DNA of 64,000 nucleotides from Dethiobacteria bacterium (GTDB lineage Bacteria > Bacillota > Dethiobacteria > DTU022 > UBA8154), in NCBI GenBank assembly GCA_050942615.1, contig JBMNNQ010000001.1, positions 12,385 through 76,384 of the forward strand, given 5' to 3'. The translations under genes and the position numbers were made by a program. A model generated the notes under the pieces. That model was not told the origin of the DNA. It searched no databases and worked only from the letters and a program-made list of their open reading frames with translations. Each line of letters opens with the position of its first letter. Positions within the stretch are counted from its first letter, which is position 1. Positions 7,736-64,000 of the stretch are shown one piece after another.

Positions 7736-9642
7736 CAGTATGGGTAACCTTCATAGACCTTTTCTTTTAGCCGGCAAAGTTTTAATGCCTCGCGGGCGAT
7801 GCCTTCCCCTGAAAGACCGTGCAGGTTTAATAAAAAGTCTCTGCTTCCCTGACCTGTATAAGCATTGGGCAGCCCCAGCCGCTTCAGGTTTATTTCCTGC
7901 AGCTCATTGTCGGCAAACGTTTCCAGGACAGCGCTGCCAAAACCCCCGCTTAAAATATGTTCCTCCACCGTCAAAACCCTGCCGCATTTTTTGGCCCAAT
8001 AACAGATTAGTTCTGTATCCAAAGGTTGAATAAAGCGGGAATTGATGACGCAACTTTCGATGCCCATTTTTAAAAGCAGGGCATGGGCTTCCAAAGCCGG
8101 TAAAACCATGGAGCCGACGGCTAAAATGAGTAGGTCAGGGCCTTCCCTTAAAAGCTGGGCTTTCCCCGCAGTTAAAATACCTGTTTCCGGTGATGAAAAC
8201 GCGGCTGCCTCTCCCCGGGGATAGCGGAGCGCTACCGGGCATTTTAAGGAAAAAGCCATTTTGAGCATTGCATCCAGCTCCCGACCGCTGGCCGGGGCCA
8301 TGAGGACAAGATTGGGCAAATGCCGCAGGTAGGCAAAATCAAACAAGCCGTTGTGGGTTTCCCCGTCTTCCCCCACCAGGCCGGCCCGGTCAACGGCGAA
8401 GACAACAGGCAGGTTTTGCAAACAAACGTCATGCAGGATCTGATCATACGCCCTTTGTAAAAAAGTGCTGTAAATAGCCACCACCGGTTTAAGGCCTTCT
8501 GCAGCCAACCCCGCGGCCATGGTGACAGCGTGTTGTTCGGCAATACCCACGTCAAAGAAACGTTGCGGCCACCGGTGGGCAAAAGGTTCCAAGCCTGTAC
8601 CTGCAGCCATCGCGGCGGTGATCGCAACAATGGAACGATCTTCCGCAGCCAGTTTTTCCAAAGAAGTGCTGAAAACCTTGCTGTATGCCGGTTGATTTTT
8701 TTTATTTACAGCAAGGGGTTCACCGGTCTTTTTACTAAAGGGCCCCACACCGTGAAAAACAAGGGGATTTTTTTCAGCAGGAGCATAGCCCCTGCCTTTT
8801 TTAGTAACAGCATGTATTAAAACCGGTCCGTGAACACTTTTTATTTCACGAAAAAGATTCACCAGTTTGGGAATGGAATGACCATCAATCGGCCCTAAAT
8901 ACTTAAAGCCAAGCTCTTCAAAAAGCATACCGGGTACTAACAGATATTTTAAGCTGTCTTTGAGGCGTTCAGCAGAACGAAGCACGGTCCGGCCAATGGC
9001 CGGTATGCGTTCCAAAATATGTTCTAGGTCTTCTTTCAGGCGAAAATACTTGGGGTCGGTGCGCAGTTTGGCCAGGTAGGAAGGAAGCCCCCCGATATTT
9101 TGGCCGATAGACATTTCGTTATCATTAAGAATAACCAATAGATCAGTTTTTTTCTCCCCTGCAAAATTAAGCGCCTCCAAGGCCATCCCGCCCGTTAAGG
9201 CGCCGTCACCAATAATATTAATGACAAAATTGTTTTTTCCCAGTAAGTCCCGGGCCTGGGCAATCCCCAGGGCTGCTGAAAGGGAGGTGCTGCTGTGCCC
9301 CACACCAAAAACATCGTACAGGCTTTCCCTTCTTTTAGGAAAGCCGCTTATGCCATTATAGCAACGAATCCTTGAAAAATGTTCCTGCCGACCGGTAAGA
9401 ATTTTATGGGTATAGCACTGGTGCCCCACATCCCAAAGAATCTTGTCGTGGGGAGCATTAAAAACAAAATGAAGGGCGATGGTCAGTTCAACAACCCCTA
9501 AGCTGGAGGCAAGATGGCCCCCTCTTTTGGAAACTACCTCAATCATAAATTCCCTTATTTCGCCGGCCAACTGTTCCAATTCTTTTAAAGACAACTTTTT
9601 CAGATCAGCAGGTTCATGAATTTTTTCAAGAATAACACCCAA
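7735..9642 (-). CDS. dxs: 1-deoxy-D-xylulose-5-phosphate synthase
   Basis: 635 aa with a TPP-binding GDGALTGGMA motif and a Dxs-specific N-terminus (LKELEQLAGEIREF...GGHLASSLGVVELTIALH). The apparent start is TTG. Confidence 0.93.
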   Translation of the reverse strand: MGVILEKIHEPADLKKLSLKELEQLAGEIREFMIEVVSKRGGHLASSLGVVELTIALHFVFNAPHDKILWDVGHQCYTHKILTGRQEHFSRIRCYNGISGFPKRRESLYDVFGVGHSSTSLSAALGIAQARDLLGKNNFVINIIGDGALTGGMALEALNFAGEKKTDLLVILNDNEMSIGQNIGGLPSYLAKLRTDPKYFRLKEDLEHILERIPAIGRTVLRSAERLKDSLKYLLVPGMLFEELGFKYLGPIDGHSIPKLVNLFREIKSVHGPVLIHAVTKKGRGYAPAEKNPLVFHGVGPFSKKTGEPLAVNKKNQPAYSKVFSTSLEKLAAEDRSIVAITAAMAAGTGLEPFAHRWPQRFFDVGIAEQHAVTMAAGLAAEGLKPVVAIYSTFLQRAYDQILHDVCLQNLPVVFAVDRAGLVGEDGETHNGLFDFAYLRHLPNLVLMAPASGRELDAMLKMAFSLKCPVALRYPRGEAAAFSSPETGILTAGKAQLLREGPDLLILAVGSMVLPALEAHALLLKMGIESCVINSRFIQPLDTELICYWAKKCGRVLTVEEHILSGGFGSAVLETFADNELQEINLKRLGLPNAYTGQGSRDFLLNLHGLSGEGIAREALKLCRLKEKVYEGYPY

Positions 9643-9812: not shown

Positions 9813-10451
9813 CTATGCATTCCTCTTCCAGATAGAAATGCGCTCCAGGGTTGTTAAAAAACGGGCTACAAATAACACTACATCCGTTGGTCTGTTAATA
9901 GCCAGTGTTTTACCCAATGCCTTGCCGCCCACTGTTAAAGCGGATACCGCTCCTGCCAAAAAAATACTCAAAATAACTTCACTTAGTATTGGGTTACCCC
10001 GGACAAGGTTAACCACGATCACTGTCCCAATGATGCCGCTTACTATGCCGCTGATGTCCCCGATGACATCATTACAAAAGCTGGCCACCAGATCTGCATG
10101 GCGTACGAGAAAAATGCTTTTTTTTGCACCATAAATTTTTTTAGCCGCTTTGGCATGAAAAGGTATCTCCTCTGCCGCAGTAACGGCAGTGCCAATCACG
10201 TCAAAAAAAATGCCCATAAAAATAATGAAAATGAGAAGCATAAAGGAAATCAGCATGGAATGCAGGTTTTGCAACAAGGAGTGTGTGATCAGGGTAAGGG
10301 CTATGGCCAAAAAAAAAGTCCAAATACTGACTAAAACCACCCAGCGTTTATTATTTTTACTTTTCCATTGTTTTTGCCGTTGTTTTTTTGTGCCCAATAA
10401 TATTACGCTCGCTGCCATATAATATGATAATGATAAAAGTGGCAGCTCCAT
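9813..10451 (-). CDS. oapA: OLE-associated membrane protein OapA-like (multi-TM). Start uncertain: 10451 or 10499
   Basis: Polytopic membrane protein encoded immediately downstream of the OLE-like RNA and upstream of dxs. This is the conserved ispA-OLE-oapA-dxs arrangement. Sequence identity to characterised OapA could not be checked here. Confidence 0.6.
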   Translation of the reverse strand: MELPLLSLSYYMAASVILLGTKKQRQKQWKSKNNKRWVVLVSIWTFFLAIALTLITHSLLQNLHSMLISFMLLIFIIFMGIFFDVIGTAVTAAEEIPFHAKAAKKIYGAKKSIFLVRHADLVASFCNDVIGDISGIVSGIIGTVIVVNLVRGNPILSEVILSIFLAGAVSALTVGGKALGKTLAINRPTDVVLFVARFLTTLERISIWKRNA

Positions 10452-10454
10452 GGG

Positions 10455-11065
10455 TAAACTTTGCGGCTTAAGGTCCAGCAGGTTTTCCCAAATGTTCACC
10501 GGCTTGTCACCAAGCGGCAGTTTCCTATTAAGAACATCTCTGCTGTGTTACCACCAACAGGGCTGGATTACCACTTAGACCACACCTTAATCCCCATGGA
10601 GCCTCCCTACGACGGGGAACAGCCTAGGAGTTTTCCTCAATGCCGCAACATCGTTTTCTATCCTTTTTTGCAGCCCTGGTTTCCTAAGGGATGTTCCCTT
10701 CCTCCCCCAAAGCCACTCAAGGCAGGCTACACTGTGCACAGTTTTGACCACACACAGGTTCTATCCTAAGCCGTAACCTTTTACCCCTACAGTAATACGC
10801 CACCAACTTAGGTCTCCACGAAGGCAGGGTCAACGCCTACATGCCTTTGTAGATCGCCCCGTCCTTCTTAACCCCCAGCACCGACCCCCGTCTGGGCTTC
10901 GGCCGCCGGCACCAGGAACTTCATCGATATGCCTTGAGCGGTTTTTCCCGCCCGCTTTCAAAAACGCTTGCGGCAACTAGGATACTGCACCACTATGTCC
11001 AGTTAAATTATAGCATATCATCCCTGGCAACTCAACGCTATTCCCCGGGCGAAAAGTCTAGGGGT
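10455..11065 (-). ncRNA. ole: OLE (ornate, large, extremophilic) RNA candidate
   Basis: About 600 nt with no protein-coding capacity in any frame, GC-rich with many short complementary segments. It lies exactly between ispA (stop at 11066) and a multi-TM gene followed by dxs, which is the diagnostic genomic context of OLE RNA in anaerobic Firmicutes. A TATAAT-like element sits near 10995-11010 on the minus strand. RNase P and tmRNA motifs were not found. Confidence 0.7.
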
Positions 11066-13528: not shown

Positions 13529-14382
13529 GATGTTCTTGCCGCCGTATCAAGAAGGTTTGTAAGCAACATGGAAATGGTCACCGGGCCAACCCCTCCCGGC
13601 ACCGGTGTTATCCAACCGGCAACTTTTTTTACACCCCAGTAATCGACATCTCCTACCAAACGGGTTCCGATCAAATTAACACCGACATCGATCACAATGG
13701 CACCCTTTCTAACCATTTCAGCGGTAATCAGGCGTGGGTTACCGGTAGCCACAACGAGCAGCTCTGCCCTTTTGGTAAAGGGGATTAGGTCCGGAGTTTG
13801 GGAATGACAGATACTGACGATTGCTTTTTTATTCAAAAGCAGGGCGGCTACAGGTTTGCCGACAAGCTCACTGCGCCCGACAACGACAGCCTGTTTGTTT
13901 TCCAGGTTTACCTCTGTAGCTTCAATTAATTTCATAATCCCTTTGGCTACATAGGGTACCAGCGGAGGGTTGCCCCTGCAAAGGTTCCCCATATTTTGAA
14001 AATGGAGACCTTCAATGTCTTTATGAGGAGCGACCAGTTGAGAAATATATGTGAAGTTAAAATGGGGGGGGAGCGGATGAATATTAATACCGTGGATCCC
14101 CGGGTCAGCGTTTAGCCGTTTAAGCAGTTGGCTGAGCTCTTCTTTGGTGGTTTCTTCCGGCAGGCAATGGATCTGGCAGTTGATACCAAGTTGCCGGCAG
14201 GCCCTTTCTTTCAAGCGGGCTACATGGATGCGGGCGGCAGGATTTTGAAGAACAATGATCGCCAGGCCGGGTGTTGTTTCTTTTTTCTTCAAGGTTGCAA
14301 TTTTTGTTCTTAACTCTTCCCGTACTTTCCTGGTGATCTGAACACCGCTGATTACCCTTGCAGACAAAATTTTCCCCTCCAT
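13525..14382 (-). CDS. FolD-family paralogue 3 (divergent methylene-THF dehydrogenase/cyclohydrolase-like)
   Basis: FolD fold with GLAIIVLQNPAA, DIEG (canonical DVDG) and a conserved PVPGGVGPVT. The catalytic YxxxK region is altered (RIHVARLKER). The start was chosen at MEGKIL. Confidence 0.7.
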   Translation of the reverse strand: MEGKILSARVISGVQITRKVREELRTKIATLKKKETTPGLAIIVLQNPAARIHVARLKERACRQLGINCQIHCLPEETTKEELSQLLKRLNADPGIHGINIHPLPPHFNFTYISQLVAPHKDIEGLHFQNMGNLCRGNPPLVPYVAKGIMKLIEATEVNLENKQAVVVGRSELVGKPVAALLLNKKAIVSICHSQTPDLIPFTKRAELLVVATGNPRLITAEMVRKGAIVIDVGVNLIGTRLVGDVDYWGVKKVAGWITPVPGGVGPVTISMLLTNLLDTAARTS

Positions 14383-24978: not shown

Positions 24979-25982
24979 TTGGCTTTTTCTTCACCCCCGT
25001 AGCGGGCAGAATAAAGGGGCAGTCCTTTTTCCCCTTCAATGATCATCTCCAGGGTCCCCGGCCCCTTGTTGTTATTCAGGAAAATAAGGCGTTCAAAAAT
25101 ATTTTCCTGTAATAGTTCACCTAGAACGGGCCGTTGGCAGAGCTCCTCCAGCGAGGAACCATGGACAGAAGCAATAACGGATACCCCTGCAGATACAGCC
25201 TCAGCAAGAGCCTGTACATCCTCTTCCCTGCCGATTTCATCTGTAATAATTACCTGTGGTGAAAGTGAACGCAGCATGAGCATAATTCCTTCTGCTTTGG
25301 GGCAGGCGTCCAAAACGTCTGTCCTGATGCCAACATCCAACTGCGGAACCCCCTGGAAACAGCCGGCAATCTCGGAACGTTCATCAATAACGCCCACTTT
25401 TTGCCCCGCTTGGCCCAAAATCCCGGCACCGTTGCTGATTAAGCGAGCTAAATCCCTGAGCAGTGTTGTTTTCCCCCCCTGGGGAGGAGAAATAATCAGG
25501 GTATGAAAAATACGCCAGGTTTGCCGGTCAAACAGAAAACCGAGCACTTTTTCGCCCGCCCCTTTGATCTGACGAGCTACACGAAAATTAAGGGAACTGA
25601 TGTCCCGCAAGATCCTGATCTTGCCATTTTCCAGCACTGCCCTTCCGGCCAGGCCTACACGGTGCCCGCCAGGAAGGGTCAGGTAACCCTGTTTTAGTTC
25701 TTCCTCAAAGGCATAAAGGGAATAACTGCTGATCAGTTCTACTGTCTTCTCTAAATCCTCACCAAAAACATGGTAAGCCTCCTTGGCTGTCAGGACAGGC
25801 CCCTTTGTCCCAAGAAAGACTTCCCCCCCCGCCCAATAGATAATAAGAGGCCGGGAATGCCGCAAACGTATTTCTTCTGTTTTATTTAAAACCTCCGCCG
25901 GCAATTTTTCGATAATAGCGCGGATCGGCAGGGTCAGAAAAGGGCAGATCTGTTTTATAATATTATTCCGGGCTTTCCCCAT
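24975..25982 (-). CDS. spoIIIAA: Stage III sporulation protein AA (secretion-type ATPase)
   Basis: 335 aa with Walker A PPQGGKTT. Confidence 0.9.
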   Translation of the reverse strand: MGKARNNIIKQICPFLTLPIRAIIEKLPAEVLNKTEEIRLRHSRPLIIYWAGGEVFLGTKGPVLTAKEAYHVFGEDLEKTVELISSYSLYAFEEELKQGYLTLPGGHRVGLAGRAVLENGKIRILRDISSLNFRVARQIKGAGEKVLGFLFDRQTWRIFHTLIISPPQGGKTTLLRDLARLISNGAGILGQAGQKVGVIDERSEIAGCFQGVPQLDVGIRTDVLDACPKAEGIMLMLRSLSPQVIITDEIGREEDVQALAEAVSAGVSVIASVHGSSLEELCQRPVLGELLQENIFERLIFLNNNKGPGTLEMIIEGEKGLPLYSARYGGEEKAK

Positions 25983-29504: not shown

Positions 29505-29553
29505 TTGGAATCACTGCTCCTGCTATTTTCTACATGCCCTGTTGGGGGGGGAC

Positions 29554-51234: not shown

Positions 51235-52155
51235 TTACATACTTTGAAATGTCTGCATAATACGAATTAAGGCCGGCCCCAACAGAACAACAAACAGGGT
51301 TGGAAAAATAAAAAATACCAGGGGGAAAAGCATTTTGATCGGTGCTTTCATCGCTGCCTCTTCAGCACGCTGGCGCCGTTTTCGCCGCATGGCTTCAGCC
51401 TGGATACGCAAGGTGTTGGCAATGTTACTGCCTAATTGTTCAGACTGAATTACAGCGCTGATAAAGCTGCTCAGGTCCTGCACCCCCGTGCGCCCGACGA
51501 TGCTGCGCAGGGCCTCTTCCCGGGTCTTGCCCAGCCGCATTTCCTCCAGGGCCCGCGCTATTTCCTGGCCCAGAATACCGGGCGCCTGTTCAGTAACCCG
51601 CTTCAAAGCCATATCAAAACCCAACCCTGCTTCCGCACTGACCAACAGCAGGTCAAGGGTATCCGGTAAACTTTTTTGAATTTCATGCTGGCGCTTTGCC
51701 GCCCGTGAATTTAGCAGTCCCACGGGCAGCGTTGCCCCGCTGGAAAAGGCCAGGAACAAGAAAAACACAGTTCTTTGTTCCCCCCAACCGGCAAGCCGGA
51801 TCGCCATCCCCGCCAGGAAAACAAAAAAAACAGCCAGCAGGGCCTGCAGGGAAATTAAACTGTTAAAGTTCATCTTGCCGGGGTTTCCCGCATAGCCGAT
51901 CTTTTTTTCCAAACCCTGGCGGATTTCCCGGGGAGTTAAATTGCCCAAAGCGGCACCTAGTTTACGGAAGACTGGTTGAATTATTCTTTCAAAAAACGGT
52001 TTCCGCAGCTCATCTTCTGTGGCATTTTCTGCCATTTTCCTAATGGTTTGCAGCCGCAGGGCAACCTGTTTTTGGGGGCCCCAAAAAACTTCATAAAAAG
52101 CAGTCACCAGGAGAACAACGGTGGCAAAAAGCAGAACGTTGACCAGCAATAACAT
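51235..52155 (-). CDS. tadC: Tad pilus platform protein TadC (GspF family)
   Basis: 306 aa with three TM helices and a GspF-like domain. Confidence 0.8.
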   Translation of the reverse strand: MLLLVNVLLFATVVLLVTAFYEVFWGPQKQVALRLQTIRKMAENATEDELRKPFFERIIQPVFRKLGAALGNLTPREIRQGLEKKIGYAGNPGKMNFNSLISLQALLAVFFVFLAGMAIRLAGWGEQRTVFFLFLAFSSGATLPVGLLNSRAAKRQHEIQKSLPDTLDLLLVSAEAGLGFDMALKRVTEQAPGILGQEIARALEEMRLGKTREEALRSIVGRTGVQDLSSFISAVIQSEQLGSNIANTLRIQAEAMRRKRRQRAEEAAMKAPIKMLFPLVFFIFPTLFVVLLGPALIRIMQTFQSM

Positions 52156-53140: not shown

Positions 53141-54526
53141 TCAGTGCCTCCTAAAGGCCGTTTCAAAATTTTTCGCCCCGAATAAGCCCTTGGGTAGCTT
53201 TTCCCCAAAAGTTTGCAGTTTTTCCATGTTGCGGGGAATAATGCCGGTGGGCACATGTTTTCCGGCAATGCGGCCCCTTTCATTAAATCCCGTTTGTTCA
53301 AAAATAAAAATGTCCTGCAAGGTAATAATATCCCCCTCCATCCCTGCTACCTCCGATACTTTGACAATCTTGCGGCTGCCATCAGGAAGGCGGGACTGTT
53401 GAATAATCAGGTCAATAGCCGAGGCAACCTGCTCACGGATCGCCCGCAAAGGCAGGTTTATGCCTGCCATAAGCACCATGGTTTCCAGGCGCGCCAGCGC
53501 GTCCCGGGGGTTGTTGGCATGCAGGGTGGAAATGGAGCCGTCGTGGCCGGTATTCATTGCCTGCAGCATGTCAAGTGCCTCGCCTCCCCGCACCTCTCCA
53601 ACCACAATGCGGTCCGGGCGCATACGCAGTGAGTTAATCACCAGATCACGAATTGTGATTTCCCCATGGCCTTCAATGTCTGGAGGGCGGCTTTCCAGGG
53701 TAACAACATGTTCCTGATGCAGTTGTAGTTCTGCGGCATCCTCGATGGTTACAATTCTTTCCTGTTCGGGGATAAAACCGGAGAGCACATTTAAGGTCGT
53801 CGTTTTGCCGCTGCCGGTCCCCCCGGAAACAATAATATTGAGGCGGGCCAGCACTGCAGACTTGAACAGGCGGGCAATCTCCCCGGTCATGGTCCCGAAA
53901 TTAATCAGATCCCCGGGGGTCAAGGGCTTTGCCGCAAACTTACGGATAGTCAAGGCAGGCCCTTTTAAGGCCAACGGCGGAATGATGGCGTTAACACGGG
54001 AACCGTCCGGCAGGCGGGCGTCAACCATGGGCGACTTTTCATCCAGCCTTCTGCCCAAAGGGGTTACAATTTTATCGATAGTTTCAAGCAGATGTGCATT
54101 ATCACAAAAAGTAATCCCTGTTTTGATGATCTTCCCCTTTTGCTCCACATAAACCAACCCGGGGCCGTTAACCATAATTTCTGAAATGGTGGGATCCCGG
54201 AGCAGCGGGTTAATTGGCCCGTAACCACAGGCTTCGTCATAAATATGCCCGGCAATTTTTTCCTTGTCAGCCCGGGAAAGTTCAAGCCCGGAATCTTTGA
54301 GTACCGCTTCCAAGGCTACACTGATCTGCGCTGAATACTTTATTTTCTGTTGGGCATCCATTTTTCCGACAACAGGTGTCTTGCCTGGGCTTTCAAGAAC
54401 CCTGCGCAAAGTTGCGGTGATCAGGCCCTCCCATTCCTTTTTCCTGTTGAGGCCGTAATTTTCAGTTACAGGTTCTTTCCCCCCAGGGGCGAAGGCCCAT
54501 TGTGGCGGCAATTTCATTTTTCTCAC
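53141..54526 (-). CDS. tadA: Tad pilus assembly ATPase CpaF/TadA
   Basis: Walker [13 protein letters not shown], Asp box, Walker B and His box ([15 protein letters not shown]). Confidence 0.92.
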
Positions 54527-55728
54527 CTTTCCATTTCCTTTACTTCTGCAGCCTGCTTTTCCAGCCCTTCTGCTACCACCTGGCGTGCCAGTCTTATAAA
54601 GCCGCGGCTGACTTTGGATCGGGGGAAAAGCATTACTGCCGGAATACCTTTATTCAAGGACGAAGAAGTTAACCTGTATTCAGCCGGCAGAACGCCAAAA
54701 AGATCTTGTTCAAGGGTTGTTTCCACATCCCGCCTTTTGATTTCACTGCGGGATACTGCCTTGTTCAGCAGTAACTTAATCTTCTGCCGGGGGTAATTCA
54801 GGGAGTCAAGCATTACCCGGCAGGCTTTAACATTGCGGATGGCAGCCACATCCTGGGTGGTAACCAAGAGGAGCAGCCCTGCCTCCTGCAGGGCCGGATT
54901 AACTGGTTCAGAAAAACAGGCCGGCATATCCACCACTACATATTCAAAATTATTCTGCAGCGCTTGCAGAATCAGTCTGACCTGTTCTGCGTTAATAAAC
55001 CCGGCTGCCTGCGGGTGTGCTCCGGATGCCAACAACTTGATTCCGGAGCGGTGTGCAATAAGATATTCACCGATCAAATCCTGATCAGGATTATGAATTT
55101 CATTAAGTACATCATAGATCGTATAACGGGGAAGGATGTTTAAAGCCAAGGCTGCATTACCAAAATCCAGATCCAGATCGACCAGTGCAACTGTATTTTT
55201 GGTGTGCTGTGCCAAAGCTATTGCCAGGTTTGTGGCAATAAACGTTTTTCCCACACCCCCTTTGGTGCTGAAAACTGTTACAATTCTGCCCTGGCGGGGT
55301 TTTTTAGGCCCGACAGGTCTATTGTTCTGCAGGCTGGCCAGTTTTTTTTTCGCAGACTGGTAACAGTGGTAGATGGAAGCAGCCAGTTCAGCCGGTGTAA
55401 AGGGTTCGACAAGCACATCGCCGGCCCCGGCCAGGATGGCTTTGCGCATCGATTCCCCCTGGAGTTCAGTTTCCAGCAGGATCGGGGCGATCCAGGGGTA
55501 AACAGTGGCGATTTCTTCCGACAGCAAGTATCCATTGCCTGCTACAAGGCGCCCGATGACCAGTACGTCGGGTTCAAGCTCTTCAACTCCCTCTAAAGCC
55601 TCTTCCCTCGCTTCTGCTCCACCGATCACCCGTATATATTCCACTGCAGAAAGCGCTCCTATAATATCGGATCTTTTTTCATCGTCTTCCTCTACTACCA
55701 GTACTTTGATATGCTCCATATTCATCAC
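54523..55728 (-). CDS. tadZ: CpaE/TadZ: receiver-like domain fused to a ParA/MinD-type ATPase
   Basis: Deviant Walker A FSTKGGVGKT and an N-terminal REC-like fold. Confidence 0.85.
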   Translation of the reverse strand: MMNMEHIKVLVVEEDDEKRSDIIGALSAVEYIRVIGGAEAREEALEGVEELEPDVLVIGRLVAGNGYLLSEEIATVYPWIAPILLETELQGESMRKAILAGAGDVLVEPFTPAELAASIYHCYQSAKKKLASLQNNRPVGPKKPRQGRIVTVFSTKGGVGKTFIATNLAIALAQHTKNTVALVDLDLDFGNAALALNILPRYTIYDVLNEIHNPDQDLIGEYLIAHRSGIKLLASGAHPQAAGFINAEQVRLILQALQNNFEYVVVDMPACFSEPVNPALQEAGLLLLVTTQDVAAIRNVKACRVMLDSLNYPRQKIKLLLNKAVSRSEIKRRDVETTLEQDLFGVLPAEYRLTSSSLNKGIPAVMLFPRSKVSRGFIRLARQVVAEGLEKQAAEVKEMER

Positions 55729-56447
55729 CTTTCCCGGAAAGAACCTAGGTTGGCAGCATTGTAATGCTGTAAGTGCATTTTTTCCTCATCCAAAGGTGAA
55801 CGCAGAGTAAAATAAAAAGAGCCTTTCAGCTGGGCATAGGCCAAAACTTCAGCCTGTCCCGGTGTCACAGCCAGGGTGATGGTGCCAACCGGCTGCTGTT
55901 CGTCAGTATCCTGTTCCCGGGTAAGTTCCCCTGCAGCCATCACAGGGGCGTTTTGTATAATAGTATAGGTTACGGCAGCGCCACCGTTAATTTCTTCATC
56001 AGAATAGGTTACCAGCACGTCAACCTTGTCCCCAGGGGAGATATACCCTGAGACCCCTGTAATTTCATTCACGGGAAGCGAGATCGCCCGCCTTTTTTCA
56101 GGTACCCGGTAAGAAAAACTGCCCTGTCCCTCCATAGCTATCCTGGCAGTCAACAGCTGTTCCCCCTCCACGATTTCAGCGCGGGAAATGCTGCCTGCTG
56201 CTGCCTCCAAATCCCCAAAGGCCTCCGGATGAACGGCCCCCGCGGGGAGGGATTCCACTGCAAGCATCTCTGCCGTAATCCGGGTATGTTTTGGAATAGT
56301 ACTTTTAGCTACAACTACATCTGTATAGGCCGTTACCTCTACAGCCTGTGCACCGGAGGCAAGACTTTGCAGGTAGCAATTCAGAGCCAGGACGGTGCCC
56401 AGAGCAAAAATAACAGCCGCCAAAAGAAGAAGCCTGCCGTTTTTCAA
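55725..56447 (-). CDS. cpaB: Flp pilus assembly protein CpaB (SAF/RcpC domain)
   Basis: N-terminal TM helix, SAF domain and a conserved C-terminus (GTITLAVTPGQAEVLAYAQLKGSFYFTLR). Confidence 0.85.
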   Translation of the reverse strand: MKNGRLLLLAAVIFALGTVLALNCYLQSLASGAQAVEVTAYTDVVVAKSTIPKHTRITAEMLAVESLPAGAVHPEAFGDLEAAAGSISRAEIVEGEQLLTARIAMEGQGSFSYRVPEKRRAISLPVNEITGVSGYISPGDKVDVLVTYSDEEINGGAAVTYTIIQNAPVMAAGELTREQDTDEQQPVGTITLAVTPGQAEVLAYAQLKGSFYFTLRSPLDEEKMHLQHYNAANLGSFRER

Positions 56448-59487: not shown

Positions 59488-59679
59488 TTATTCACTAAAG
59501 TCGACTCCTACCCCCTTTATTCCTTCCCCGATTGTCTTAAATTTATCAGCAATATTTGTACCCAATGCTCTCAAACCAACAATAACAACCGCAGCAATTA
59601 GGACTATAATTAAAGCATATTCTACTAAACCTTGGCCTTCTTCGTCCTTAATAAACCTAGTAAAAAGCTGCTTTAGCAT
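59488..59679 (-). CDS. flp: Flp-family type IVb pilin
   Basis: 63 aa. GGAGG RBS. Flp motif ...EEGQGLVEYALIIVLIAAVVIVG with the processing site after G. Confidence 0.85.
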   Translation of the reverse strand: MLKQLFTRFIKDEEGQGLVEYALIIVLIAAVVIVGLRALGTNIADKFKTIGEGIKGVGVDFSE

Positions 59680-60031
59680 TTTAGTTTGCCTCCAATTCAA
59701 AGATAAATTAAAAATCAGGCCTTTATAAAAATCTACCTTTCACCTGCCCCCTTTCTTCCTTACTGCTGGCGAATACTTCCCCCCTACCGTTTTTTCCCCA
59801 ATTGTACACCCCCCAACAAATAACTTAGCAAAGCATTGATAAAATTTGCCGCCTTAATAACATTTATGAAAAAAATTGCTAAGCTTTGAATTTGCATTAT
59901 CACCTAGAACTTTTTTGTAAAATGTCAACATTACATAAATTATTTACAGGATAAATCACCCGGGTGTTTCTTAATGCTGAAAATATGTAAAAAAACCTGC
60001 TTCAAATGGTTACCTTTTCACTACCGCCTTG

Positions 60032-62450
60032 TTACACAGGCTTCCCCACCGGACACAGGGTCAGGTAAAAAACACCCTGGAAACAGGCGTAGGCGAGCAG
60101 TTCGGCTTGGGCAGGGGTTACCGCCAATGTTATGGAACGGGGGGCGGATGGGTTGTTTTCTACATTGTTTTGAATGTTGTTTCTTGGGATTTCCAGCACG
60201 ACAGCATTTTGGGCAACGGTGCGGGCAGCCTGTTGCATGTGGGCTGCCTGGTTGTTATAGATTACTAGGACGTCAACCTGATCGCCCGGCTGTAGATGAC
60301 TGTAAAGTCCGCCGCTTTCATTTATGGGCAGAGCCATGCCCCGCCGGCCGGGTGGTATGGAAACGGCCCAGCCGTTTGGCCTTCTTACATCTGCCGCAGC
60401 ATTTTTTGCAGGGGCAGCTGAAGCTGTGTTTTGCGTCTTTGCCGCTCTGTCAGCTGGCATGACTGCATATTCTGCTGTCGTAGCCAATCTGGCATCCTCT
60501 TCTTTCCAGGTGTTTGTCCCCTGCTTTACATCCGACGGATGGAATCCACCTTCCCCTTTTTCCCCCATAGCATCCCCGGACCGGCTTTCACTTTCCTTTA
60601 CCTTCCCTGCAATATCCAACGGCTGATCTTCGTTGTCCTTTACCTCCCCTGCAAACCCCTGCAGCAGGAGCCTCCTTGACCCCCTTTTTTCCGCAGTAGC
60701 GGGCTCAAAGGCCTCTTCCTCACTATAATTAACTGTGGGCTGAGGGCCTGCACCTGTTTTAGCCGCAATATCCCCTGAACTATGGGCATAATTGCCGGGG
60801 ATATCTGCCAGAAAACCAATCCTCCTTTCTGGAATTTTTGTTGCATAAACTGTATTTTCAGTTGAAACAGCAACATCACTGAGTATCAGATTGTTAGCAG
60901 TCAGCACTGCAGCACTGCCTGCCCTTTTTTCAGCATCCGTTCCCAACCCTTTTTCTATTAATGGATATTTCTTTTTTAAGTCCCCTTTCAGGGCAGGGAA
61001 GCTCTCTTCCGGGGTGGGGTAGGCAAAGGTCCCGTCTGTAGCGATCTCTTCCCCACAGGCCTTCAGTTTTTCCAGGCAACGGGGCACGACACCTGTGGGT
61101 CGGTATTCACCTTTGATGCGCCCCTCTTCATCTATGGATGACTGCTGAAAAACAAAGATATCGTTGACTACCAATTTGTCTTTCTTCAGGCCTGCTACTT
61201 CGCTGATTTTTGTGATTTTACGGCTGCCGTCACTAAGGCGGGACTGTTGCACAACTAGCTCCACCGCCGAGCCAATCTGTTCACGGATGGCCCGCAGGGG
61301 CAGTTCGATGCCCGCCATGAGGATCATGGTTTCCAGCCTCGCCAGGGCATCCTGGGGGTTGTTGGCGTGCAGGGTGGATATAGAGCCATCGTGCCCGGTG
61401 TTCATAGCCTGCAGCATGTCAAAGGCTTCGCCGCCCCGGACTTCCCCCACGATTATCCGATCCGGGCGCATACGCAGGGAATTGATCACCAGTTCCCGGA
61501 TGGTAAACTGCCCTTTGCCTTCAATGTTTGCCGGGCGGCTTTCCAGGGTAACAAGGTGATCCTGCTGCAGCTGCAGTTCGGCGGTGTCTTCAATAGTGAC
61601 AATACGTTCACTGCCGGGGATAAAACTGGAGAGGACGTTTAAGGTTGTAGTCTTGCCGCTGCCGGTTCCACCGGAAACTACGATGTTAAGCCGTGCCCGT
61701 ACACAGGCGGCCAGGAAGCGGGCCATTTCCCGGCTCAGCGTACCAAAGTTAATCAGGTCGTCGGCAGTGAAAGGATCGGCAGCAAACTTGCGAATCGTCA
61801 GGGATGGGCCACGCAGGGCCAGGGGGGGGAATGATAGCATTTACCCGGGAACCATCAGGCAGACGGGCGTCAACAGTGGGGGAACTTTCGTCAATCCTTC
61901 TGCCTAAAGGGGTAATAATCTTATTAATAACATGCAGGACATGGTTGTCATCACGAAAGGTTGCCCCTGTTTTGCTGATTTTTCCCTTCCGTTCAACGTA
62001 AACATTGGCATAGCCGTTGACCATAACCTCCGTTACACAGGGATCCTGCAACAGAGAGGTTATCGGCCCATAGCCAAATATTTCATCAGCAACATATTCG
62101 ATAACCTTTTTCCTGTCATCCTGAGAAAGAAGCTGTCCACTTTCTTCCAGCAGCCCCGCAAGGGTATTACAAATCTGTTCATCAAACTGTTTTTTTTGAA
62201 GGGGGTTCAGTTTATCCAGTTCCAGCTGCTTATCAAAGCTGTCAATTACCCGCCGCAAGGTTTGGGCAGCAATCTCCTCTAACCTTTTTTTCTTGCTCAC
62301 ACCCTTTTTGGGAATTGATGATGCCTTTGCCCGGGTTTTTGCAGTGCTGTTTCGTCCTGGAAGTATAAACACTTTTTTATGCCACCTTTTCAGCCCCCTA
62401 ATACCCCCAGGGCTGATTTTTTGAAGGTAAGAATTAAAATGAAAACACAA
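60032..62450 (-). pseudogene. Second cpaF/tadA-like ATPase gene split by a +1 frameshift in a C8 homopolymer (G8 on the plus strand, 61822-61829). Its downstream reading frame continues without a stop into a complete CpaB-like SAF domain that lacks a TM helix
   Basis: ORF 61749-62450 encodes the CpaF N-terminus and ends ...[15 protein letters not shown] 60032-61840 starts ...[15 protein letters not shown] with Walker [10 protein letters not shown] and the full ATPase core. Removing one C from the tract restores IIPPLAL, identical to the intact tadA at 53141-54526. The C-terminal ~300 aa align to CpaB (...[28 protein letters not shown] versus TITLAVTPGQAEVLAYAQLKGSFYFTL). Confidence 0.6.
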
Positions 62451-62483
62451 AAATCCCTGGTTGCCGGGTATGCGAACCAGGGA
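62434..62483 (-). terminator. Intrinsic terminator (10-bp stem AUCCCUGGUU...AACCAGGGAU followed by UUUUUGUGUUUUCAUUUU); likely the expression platform of the upstream riboswitch
   Basis: Perfect 10-bp inverted repeat at 62452-62483 and a U-run of about 5 followed by GUGUUUUCAUUUU on the minus strand that extends into the first codons of the downstream ORF. Confidence 0.7.
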
Positions 62484-62524
62484 TCAAGATACCAAAAGGT
62501 GCAGAACGACACAATCGTTCTTAT

Positions 62525-62645
62525 TTAGAACCCTGTCTTCGGCAGCCTGGCAATCCTAGCCTGCTTTGGCAGGCCTTAGACCCATAGCTTTGCGTCCCTT
62601 TCTTTCAAAAGGTTTGCCTTTATCGGTCAGTAAGCTGGTTACTTT
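62525..62645 (-). promoter_or_regulatory. GEMM-I (c-di-GMP-I) riboswitch aptamer candidate
   Basis: Minus strand reads AAAGGCAAACCUUUUGAAAGAAAGGGACGCAAAGCUAUGGGUCUAAGGCCUGCCAAAGCAGGCUAGGAUUGCCAGGCUGCC. This matches the GEMM-I core GGCAAACC-(GAAA hairpin)-GGGACGCAAAGC (compare Vc2 GGCAAACCAUUCGAAAGAGUGGGACGCAAAGCC) and is followed by a second hairpin and then a terminator. Located 5' of the tad/flp genes. Confidence 0.65.
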
Positions 62646-62842: not shown

Positions 62843-63874
62843 TTATAGCCGGGGGTTCCGGGCAGGAAGGTTAACTTCTAGGGCTATTTCTGCAACCTGT
62901 GGATCAAATTGGGTGCCGGCACAGCGGCGCAGCTCCTCCCGTACCTGCACCGGGGTTTTTGCCGGGGCATAGGGTCGGTTGGAAAGCATGGCATCAAGGG
63001 CATCGGCAACGGCAATAATCCGTGCCCCGTAAGGGATCTGTTTGCCCCGGAGACCTTCCGGGTAACCTGTCCCGTCAAATTTTTCATGGTGATAGAGGAT
63101 GATGGGCCGTTCTTTCTGCAAGAACCCAACAGGGGAAATGATTTCTGCGCCGATGACAGGATGTTGTTTAATAATTTTAAATTCCTGTTCTGTCAGCCGG
63201 CCGGTTTTTCTAAGAATCTGTTCGGGCACACCTATTTTTCCGATGTCATGCAAAATTGCTGCCTGCCATAAAACCTTTTTTTCCTCCTCCGGAAGGCCTA
63301 TTTTCTCCCCCAGGATCCCTGTAAAAAAAGCAACCCTTTCCTGATGCCCTTTGGTATAGGAATCTTTGGCATCAATTGCAGCCACCAGGGATCGCACTGT
63401 TTCCAGGTAATGATTTTGGATGTTCTGGCGGGCATTATCTATTTTTGTCCGGAGGGAGGCGTTGACCACCTGCAGCTCACTCTGCTTTTTCAACAGGGCA
63501 GCCTGCCTGGTACGGCGAACCAGCCCTTTTTTAACAACTTCTTTCACCGCACTACTGTCAAACGGTTTGATCAGATAATCCAGGGCACCCCGGCGCAGGG
63601 CGTTGGTGGCCGTTTCCACAGAAGCATAGGCGGTAATCATCACCACTTCTGTTTCCGGCACCTTGCTTTTGACCAAGGCAAGAAGATCTATGCCGTTAAT
63701 GTCGGGCATCCTGATATCCAGGATCACCAGATCAAATTCCTCAGCATCCAAATGGGCCAAAGCCTCGGCGCCACAGCTCGCCGTAGAAACTTCATAGTCA
63801 TCCCGCAGGATCATTTTCAGGGCTTCCCTAGGGCCCAGTTCATCATCAACAACCATTATTTTGGGGGTATTCAT
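62843..63874 (-). CDS. Response regulator with an HD-GYP c-di-GMP phosphodiesterase domain
   Basis: Receiver domain (KIMVVDDE...DLVILDIRMPDING) and an HD-GYP domain (HDIGKIGVP...HHEKFDGTGYPEGL). Start at MNTPKIM, preceded by GGAGAGGAG. Confidence 0.85.
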   Translation of the reverse strand: MNTPKIMVVDDELGPREALKMILRDDYEVSTASCGAEALAHLDAEEFDLVILDIRMPDINGIDLLALVKSKVPETEVVMITAYASVETATNALRRGALDYLIKPFDSSAVKEVVKKGLVRRTRQAALLKKQSELQVVNASLRTKIDNARQNIQNHYLETVRSLVAAIDAKDSYTKGHQERVAFFTGILGEKIGLPEEEKKVLWQAAILHDIGKIGVPEQILRKTGRLTEQEFKIIKQHPVIGAEIISPVGFLQKERPIILYHHEKFDGTGYPEGLRGKQIPYGARIIAVADALDAMLSNRPYAPAKTPVQVREELRRCAGTQFDPQVAEIALEVNLPARNPRL

Positions 63875-64000
63875 CTTTCCAGCACTCCTCTCCGGAAAAG
63901 ATCGGTAAAAATACTTCAATTTCAAGGTAATGATCCCTTGTTAAGGAGGCCCTGACCTGCCCGCCGTGATCCTCAATAATTTTTCGGCTGACCGGCGGCC

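Follow-up and report, generated by a model that had tools for sequence, protein, structure and literature searches.

The 64,000-nucleotide stretch of a Dethiobacteria bacterium genome that was analysed here (contig JBMNNQ010000001.1 of assembly GCA_050942615.1; hereafter the window) contains on its minus strand a complete tad (Flp pilus) locus and, in front of the flp pilin gene, a second copy of the motor ATPase gene cpaF that is split by a frameshift. This gene, cpaF2, spans positions 62372-60032, and its reading frame is broken at a run of eight C. The comparison with other assemblies confirmed that the frameshift is real and lineage-specific, and that the length of the run is polymorphic, with eight or nine C on an otherwise identical background. 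When the frame is restored, the gene encodes a complete CpaF/TadA-type ATPase that continues through a long linker into an RcpC domain alone, without a SAF domain and without a transmembrane (TM) helix. This fused architecture is conserved in related Bacillota; it is rare and it is no accident of the frameshift. As an explanation for the broken gene, we tentatively favour, with a confidence that falls a little short of even, a young loss-of-function allele that was made by slippage, whose run length is drifting, and which lies in a rare accessory Tad ATPase.

Read on the minus strand, the sequence at the break is ATC ATT CCCCCCCC TGG, in which the eight C occupy positions 61829-61822. In the zero frame the run is translated as I-I-P-P-P-G, after which the N-terminal open reading frame (ORF) passes through 24 out-of-frame codons to a TAA at 61749; with seven C the same stretch encodes I-I-P-P-L-A-L. 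A first-pass annotation of the window, made from the DNA letters alone, had placed a second cpaF immediately 5' of flp and had described two ORFs in different frames around the homopolymer, namely 61749-62450 (233 amino acids from a nominal TTG) and 60032-61840 (602 amino acids). It had also pointed out that a tract of seven nucleotides would give back the heptapeptide IIPPLAL of the intact paralogue. The gene map and the sequence bear out each of these statements, and the heptapeptide is all that the paralogue cpaF1 and the restored protein share at this site. Deletion of one C yields a single ORF of 805 codons counted from the TTG, close to the length of about 800 residues that had been predicted. 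However, the TTG at 62450 lies inside the U-run of a terminator and is merely the first in-frame start codon. The true start is likely to be the GTG at 62372, which is preceded by AAGGTGG nine bases upstream, was chosen in three deposited gene calls (P0008, P0283 and P0284) and aligns with the N-termini of orthologues (MFPGRN or VFMFPGRN). Because this GTG is taken as the start, the restored protein comprises 779 amino acids, and the overlap of the terminator U-tract with the start of the gene, which had also been noted, holds for the nominal TTG but not for the likely GTG. The exact 207-residue N-terminal product has also been recorded from other assemblies.

Five alleles were available for comparison, that of the window and those of four other assemblies. 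Besides the window, eight C are found in L002 (Logan SRR31357141), L088 (Logan SRR11702766) and L090 (NCBI GCA_046128275.1), and these three differ from the window by 23-44 substitutions. As four independent assemblies, including the window, carry C8, the sequencing error that the first-pass annotation had considered for the tract is excluded for this run length. The fifth allele, L089 (JGI 3300065678), on which the C8/C9 polymorphism depends and in which a consensus error is possible, has nine C. Over 7.36 kb, L089 shows no substitution relative to the window and no indel other than the C run, and among the eleven homopolymers of 7-8 nucleotides in this overlap the C run alone varies. Indeed, it is the only one-nucleotide indel across the 7-13 kb of the compared contigs. 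The window contains three more G/C runs of eight nucleotides (14064-14071, 25823-25830 and 29544-29551), of which one is intergenic and the other two preserve the reading frames of the intact genes folD and spoIIIAA. As these two genes are unbroken, the frame break does not reflect a general fault of the assembly. Moreover, split products have been recorded from further contigs, including a 93-kb contig of a metagenome-assembled genome of a Dethiobacteria bacterium. The pieces were labelled CpaF (TadA), CpaB or even EcfA2 by the annotators, and annotation pipelines are inconsistent for these genes, which they name TadA, CpaB or 'EcfA2' or divide into two or three fragments. Searches of 5.8e9 clusters with the tail and with the N-domain returned only split products as close relatives and no in-frame allele, and a look-up of the exact restored protein in the protein collection was empty.

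Two further frame changes were observed in related contigs. In L003 the frame changes within the linker, at a coverage of 5x, which is not interpretable. In L085 the canonical cpaF (8001-9376) is called in two pieces that are split at GGTCCGGGGGGCGAAG, where six G are present and seven are needed. This is either the reciprocal of the situation in the window or a homopolymer error of long reads.

The more distant orthologues are in frame at the break site and have no C run. Their codons read CCA CCT CTG in L085 and CCG CCC CTG in L086 and L087, and the paralogue, which likewise has no run, reads CCG CCG TTG. Among these orthologues, L085 represents a complete gene, L086 ends with its contig and L087 is truncated further downstream. 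As the orthologues lack the run and are intact at this position, the lesion is specific to the lineage of the window. Thus, the same frameshift, which the first-pass annotation had named as the mark of a fixed pseudogene if orthologues shared it, is present in all conspecific alleles but not in more distant orthologues. Furthermore, CCC is the commonest proline codon in the window (36%), and a C7 precursor is therefore unremarkable and needs no selection. The truncated gene in L087 (1370-2257) encodes an orthologue with 71% identity (P0010) that turns into unrelated sequence after ...PFTVED at about residue 245 and stops at 295 amino acids; the end of the contig holds an ORF on the opposite strand. 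This divergence could be due to an insertion, a truncation or a chimeric contig.

In the restored protein, Pfam detects the T2SSE domain (PF00437) at residues 127-402 (E 1e-64) and the RcpC domain (PF16976) at residues 695-798 (E 9e-19), with no stop and no further Pfam domain between them. The Walker A, Asp box, Walker B and His box motifs can all be read in the translated T2SSE domain. According to the first-pass annotation, the ATPase would continue with no stop into a full CpaB/SAF domain that lacks the N-terminal TM helix. The uninterrupted frame and the missing helix were confirmed, and the 19-residue Kyte-Doolittle maximum is 1.1-1.7 in five fusion proteins as compared with 2.49 for the CpaB anchor. 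The tail, however, is limited to the RcpC half. No match to the SAF domain (PF08666) was obtained in the restored protein with Pfam at E values up to 1, and in a BLASTP alignment with the CpaB of the window only CpaB residues 111-215 align, with 43% identity. The similarity to the RcpC half of this CpaB points to a cpaB gene as the origin of the captured domain. A profile made from six tails matches PDB entry 9gzr, a Tad 'alignment complex protein RcpC' (E 2e-6). When the last 172 residues were modelled with AlphaFold2, the predicted local distance difference test (pLDDT) scores were 85-97 over the final ~110 residues, and Foldseek searches with the tail model returned 9gzr as the sole significant match (probability 1.00). 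The last 60 residues of the linker in front of the RcpC domain have a pLDDT of about 50 and are predicted to be disordered. A linker stretch at about 60830-60935 (minus strand) weakly matches CpaB residues 79-118 (E 0.11), which form the end of the SAF domain and the first strand of RcpC, and its motif P-x-R-[RK]-IGFLADI recurs in the linker of L085. The stretch may be what remains of the SAF/RcpC junction of a captured cpaB.

The first-pass annotation had called the architecture unusual and had proposed BLASTP searches for CpaF-CpaB fusions in related Peptococcaceae/Clostridia. Intact CpaF-RcpC fusions indeed exist in related Bacillota, to which the class Dethiobacteria belongs. The 519-kb metagenome contig L085 encodes an intact fusion ORF of 926 amino acids; its tad locus is syntenic, and flp follows the fusion gene directly. 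P0134 and P0286 are intact fusions of 803 and 805 amino acids, respectively, with flp next. The complete genome of Ca. Contubernalis alkalaceticus encodes an intact fusion of 630 amino acids (P0137, which is WP_320415602.1), and P0139 is an intact fusion of 1195 amino acids with DUF7507 repeats in the linker. In addition, L093 contains a fusion ORF of at least 745 amino acids followed by flp, and L095 a partial copy of the fusion. The fusion gene lies directly upstream of flp in L085, L093 and L172 as in the window, and tail-only RcpC fragments, also upstream of flp, are found at contig edges in L003, L004, L091 and L094. The CpaF/TadA protein is encoded by a single ORF in L085, P0134, P0137, P0139 and L093, and by no single ORF in the window and in all conspecific alleles. 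In the relatives the linker is between about 90 and 700 amino acids long, and its sequence differs widely.

The architecture is rare, as had been supposed. Among the best 150 matches from 1.84 billion cluster representatives, four clusters are CpaF-RcpC fusions (P0001, P0134, P0137 and P0139), and the other long matches of this exhaustive search are tandem T2SSE ATPases or have unrelated C-terminal domains (TPR, L-PSP). When the tail alignment was used as a profile, few proteins were retrieved and known members were missed, and this search is no census. The scan of metagenome contigs yielded mostly ordinary CpaB proteins and the fusion type only in L091-L095. Among the matches listed from a scan of genome contigs with the 602-residue ORF, generic CpaF proteins predominated. 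The one apparent match to core and tail, the contig L041, was rejected as a fusion, as it carries two adjacent genes, cpaB and FHA-cpaF. In Ca. Contubernalis (L171 7785-9893, CP054699.1) the fusion gene stands alone with a riboswitch, and no flp or tad genes are present within 8 kb. The 196-residue record P0287 of the 'RcpC/CpaB family' is the C-terminus of the L171 fusion ORF under a different annotation. The DUF7507 repeats of P0139, which are Ig-like and of the surface-protein type, lie at about residues 900-1070 and are odd for a protein that is predicted to be cytoplasmic.

The split gene is preceded by a riboswitch, as the first-pass annotation had stated. The aptamer belongs to class I of the cyclic di-GMP (c-di-GMP) riboswitches and matches the full model (positions 1-87) with 85.8 bits, compared with a gathering score of 35 (E 1.5e-15). 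Aptamers of the c-di-GMP-I or the c-di-GMP-I-GGC family precede the gene in the window, L172, L171 and L087. In L086 the aptamer stands before a small operon that consists of a transglutaminase gene, an EAL/HDOD gene and then the cpaF2 orthologue, whose C-terminus is beyond the contig. The leaders of the orthologues score 60-88 bits, and the link between riboswitch and gene is conserved in relatives. The aptamers of L086 (795-892) and L087 (1287-1390) are both of the GGC variant of c-di-GMP-I, and the aptamer of L093 (2376-2463) is located between the fusion gene and flp. In the window, a terminator-like hairpin with an 11-bp stem and a U-run after it is part of both the minimum free energy (MFE) and the centroid folds and was missed by the terminator consensus scan, as its loop is longer than 8 nucleotides. 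Folding of the leader (MFE; transcript ending before the 3' arm of the terminator) gave several competing helices and no clear ON/OFF polarity.

The coordinates of the locus are summarised in Table 1. After flp, the tad operon continues with the prepilin peptidase gene cpaA, two tadE genes, tadG, cpaB, tadZ, cpaF1, tadB and tadC, and it ends at 51235. Both the canonical cpaB and cpaF1 are intact within the locus of the window. The response regulator gene directly upstream of the riboswitch probably represents a c-di-GMP-degrading signalling module beside a c-di-GMP-sensing RNA. In L089 (3-3857) and L090 (3278-8884) it is preceded by genes for two PAS/GAF histidine kinases.

Table 1. Features of the cpaF2 gene and its surroundings in the window
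Feature	Position	Strand	Basis or remark
REC + HD-GYP-type (HD_5/HD) response regulator gene	62843-63925	-	directly upstream of riboswitch
c-di-GMP-I riboswitch aptamer (RF01051)	62538..62628	-	cmscan, 85.8 bits; leader of split gene
Terminator-like hairpin (AUCCCUGGUU...AACCAGGGAU) and U-run	62441..62484	-	MFE and centroid folds; expression platform
Likely ribosome-binding site AAGGTGG (62388-62382) and GTG start (62372-62370)	62370..62388	-	sequence, deposited gene calls, orthologue N-termini
cpaF2 N-terminal ORF, 207 amino acids, CpaF N-domain	61749..62372	-	ORF list
C8 homopolymer (plus strand G8), frameshift site	61822..61829	-	sequence reading
ATPase core, downstream frame, to end of CpaF homology	61046..61822	-	Pfam T2SSE, E 1e-64
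Linker, about 226-230 amino acids, 678 nucleotides, A/E/G/K-rich, hypervariable	60368..61045	-	no Pfam match
RcpC domain, without SAF, without TM anchor	60056..60367	-	Pfam PF16976, E 9e-19
Stop codon of core and tail ORF	60032..60034	-	sequence
flp pilin gene, heads canonical tad operon	59488..59700	-	Pfam Flp_Fap
Normal cpaB (TM, SAF and RcpC)	55725-56447	-	gene map
Canonical intact paralogue cpaF1	53141-54526	-	gene map

The gene is a member of a rare type of accessory Tad ATPase, in which a c-di-GMP-I riboswitch is followed by the coding sequence for a whole CpaF/TadA motor with a long linker and an anchorless C-terminal RcpC domain. According to the explanation that we favour, in this lineage of the class Dethiobacteria two synonymous third-position choices would have turned the Pro-Pro-Leu codons into CCC CCC C, and replication slippage would then have added one C. 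What is left is a 207-residue N-terminal fragment and a 602-residue ORF without an evident translation start of its own. The run would keep slipping, with eight C in four haplotypes and nine in a genome that otherwise matches the window exactly. The canonical tad operon, with a CpaF and a CpaB of its own, is retained in full. As only the fragment and the startless ORF are encoded, the gene is genetically OFF. We infer that the extra C originated by slippage and that the full-length protein is not made. That every conspecific allele is frameshifted, without a single one in frame, favours a fixed lesion. Taken alone, the frameshift is an ordinary homopolymer lesion; the feature to be noted is the 8/9 polymorphism.

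Several observations weigh against this explanation. If the gene had been lost before the split of the four haplotypes, its substitutions would be expected to look more neutral than they do. Across the five alleles, the 777 nucleotides of the ATPase core downstream of the break carry four synonymous and no non-synonymous substitutions in the restored frame, a pattern with a chance of ~0.015 under neutral transitions. The sole other indel is an in-frame insertion of three nucleotides in the linker at 61003, and none of the five alleles has acquired a new stop. The N-domain (543 nucleotides; no synonymous and one non-synonymous substitution) and the RcpC domain (333 nucleotides; none and two, the latter being N to D and V to I) add nothing to the signal of constraint, and all counts are small. 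Hence the substitutions only weakly suggest that the motor domain is still constrained. Moreover, a contingency locus would also fit, since the G/C run is part of the coding sequence of a pilus-biogenesis gene and differs in length between otherwise identical genomes. The linker itself carries four synonymous and ten non-synonymous substitutions in its 678 nucleotides. With these 14 substitutions and one indel, about 2% of its sites are polymorphic as compared with 0-1.2% in the neighbouring genes, among which the 1.46 kb of cpaA-tadE show no polymorphism, and the linker thus evolves faster than the local synonymous rate.

Phase-variable genes for surface structures that are switched by homopolymers, a form of simple sequence repeat (SSR), are known from host-adapted bacteria, e.g., the G-run in pilC of Neisseria. 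The gene of the window resembles such loci in that a coding G/C run lies in a pilus-biogenesis gene and is polymorphic in length between near-identical genomes, and differs from them in that no ON allele was observed and that the run is not conserved in orthologues. We know of no documented SSR phase-variation mechanism of the pilC kind in environmental Bacillota. A switch of this kind, which the first-pass annotation had also named as an option, is nevertheless a real possibility, albeit one that we would not expect to prevail. Slipped-strand mispairing in the C run would toggle the accessory ATPase between ON (seven or ten C) and OFF (eight or nine C), adding a stochastic layer over the c-di-GMP riboswitch, and the sampled populations would be mostly OFF by chance. 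The homopolymer of 8-9 G/C within a pilus-biogenesis gene, the difference in run length between genomes with zero other differences, where one of eleven long homopolymers varies, and the preserved reading frame downstream (four synonymous to no non-synonymous substitutions in the core, the linker indel in frame, no secondary lesion in five alleles) are what such a switch would predict. However, it requires both ON and OFF alleles, and no ON allele was found in any deposited assembly. The run is missing from all more distant orthologues and is therefore not a conserved device, and four diverged haplotypes with exactly eight C argue against fast switching. In addition, given the codon usage, chance would suffice to produce a C7 run, and the single C9 could be a consensus error in one assembly.

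A second alternative is that low levels of full-length protein are made from the C8 allele by recoding, either by +1 slippage of tRNA-Pro on CCC-C or by slippage of RNA polymerase. The zero frame CCC CCC CCU GGC (PPPG) places poly-proline on slippery proline codons, a +1-prone context that is normally suppressed by elongation factor P (PMC7577736), and the ribosome would stall on the P-P-P-G motif during the +1 slip. Re-pairing of tRNA-Pro by +1 on CCC CCC C would yield exactly IIPPLAL; moreover, C8 is kept in four haplotypes and the core downstream has changed only synonymously. These points notwithstanding, recoding is quite improbable in our view, although some leaky full-length product may be made. 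Since the orthologues are without a frameshift, no recoding is programmed across the family. The flanking RNA folds no better than shuffled sequences (z-scores 0.73, -0.53 and -0.03), no element resembling a Shine-Dalgarno sequence lies upstream of the site, and the C9 allele would need the opposite shift. Spontaneous frameshift rates at such sites are also low. The remaining alternative, in which the extra C is an error of base calling or assembly and the gene is intact in the organism, hardly deserves credence: homopolymers are classic sites of indel errors and the G6/G7 split in the canonical cpaF of the related assembly L085 is suspicious, but C8 is shared by four independently assembled data sets with distinct single-nucleotide polymorphisms and by further deposited gene calls, and the other 8-nucleotide G/C runs of the window are in frame.

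What the restored protein might do can be considered against the known Tad machinery. CpaF is the cytoplasmic hexameric Tad motor and drives both extension and retraction in Caulobacter (PMC11300603; PMC12637624). The split gene agrees with CpaF/TadA in its full set of T2SSE ATPase motifs, its CpaF-type N-domain and its place in a tad locus next to flp. It differs in being a second copy beside an intact cpaF, in having a linker and a C-terminal RcpC domain, and in having its own c-di-GMP riboswitch and, in the window, a frameshift. CpaB/RcpC is anchored in the cytoplasmic membrane, and its SAF and RcpC domains form the lower periplasmic ring in models of the Caulobacter machine (PMC12637624); the RcpC entry 9gzr holds twelve chains. 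By Pfam, by the PDB profile and by its predicted fold, the fusion tail is an RcpC domain as well, but it lacks the N-terminal TM helix and the SAF domain, and it is expected on the opposite side of the membrane. As it is tethered to a cytoplasmic ATPase, the TM-less RcpC domain should stay in the cytoplasm, out of reach of the external CpaB ring. As a working guess, it would oligomerise there or, at the cytoplasmic face of the machine, attach the additional motor to a cytoplasmic partner.

A riboswitch with a terminator in the leader of a pilus gene has a counterpart in the c-di-GMP riboswitch of a Firmicute (PMC4325102, cited in PMC6916266). There, a class II riboswitch stands before a type IVa pilus pilin gene, whereas the window has a class I (GEMM-I) riboswitch before an accessory Tad ATPase gene. 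The combination of an accessory CpaF, a cytoplasmic RcpC domain and an own c-di-GMP riboswitch seems to be undescribed, although its parts all belong to known families. No published description of a CpaF-RcpC fusion or of a Tad system of Dethiobacteria was found in the literature searched, which was incomplete, and this negative is therefore weak evidence of novelty. A more far-reaching proposal would be that monoderm Tad systems have in this fusion an accessory motor not described before, in which the cytoplasmic RcpC domain builds or docks to a ring at the inner face, and that it is double-gated, by signal through the c-di-GMP riboswitch and, in the Dethiobacteria lineage of the window, by chance through a reversible C-run switch or low-level decoding that depends on slippage. 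We regard this proposal as rather unlikely. The fusion joins the Tad motor ATPase to a ring domain whose known occurrences are all on the outer side of the cytoplasmic membrane. Should the protein be functional, the question arises of what its RcpC domain binds, and the protein would bear on how single-membrane bacteria hold their Tad machines together, a question that has been raised before (PMC6916266), as well as on the control of Tad pili by c-di-GMP at the level of the motor. For testing such questions, the C run offers an OFF allele, and perhaps a switch, of natural origin.

Elsewhere in the window, a full-length ornate large extremophilic (OLE) RNA was found at 10423-11009 on the minus strand (443 bits, model positions 1-616), which fits an anaerobic or extremophilic host among the Bacillota.

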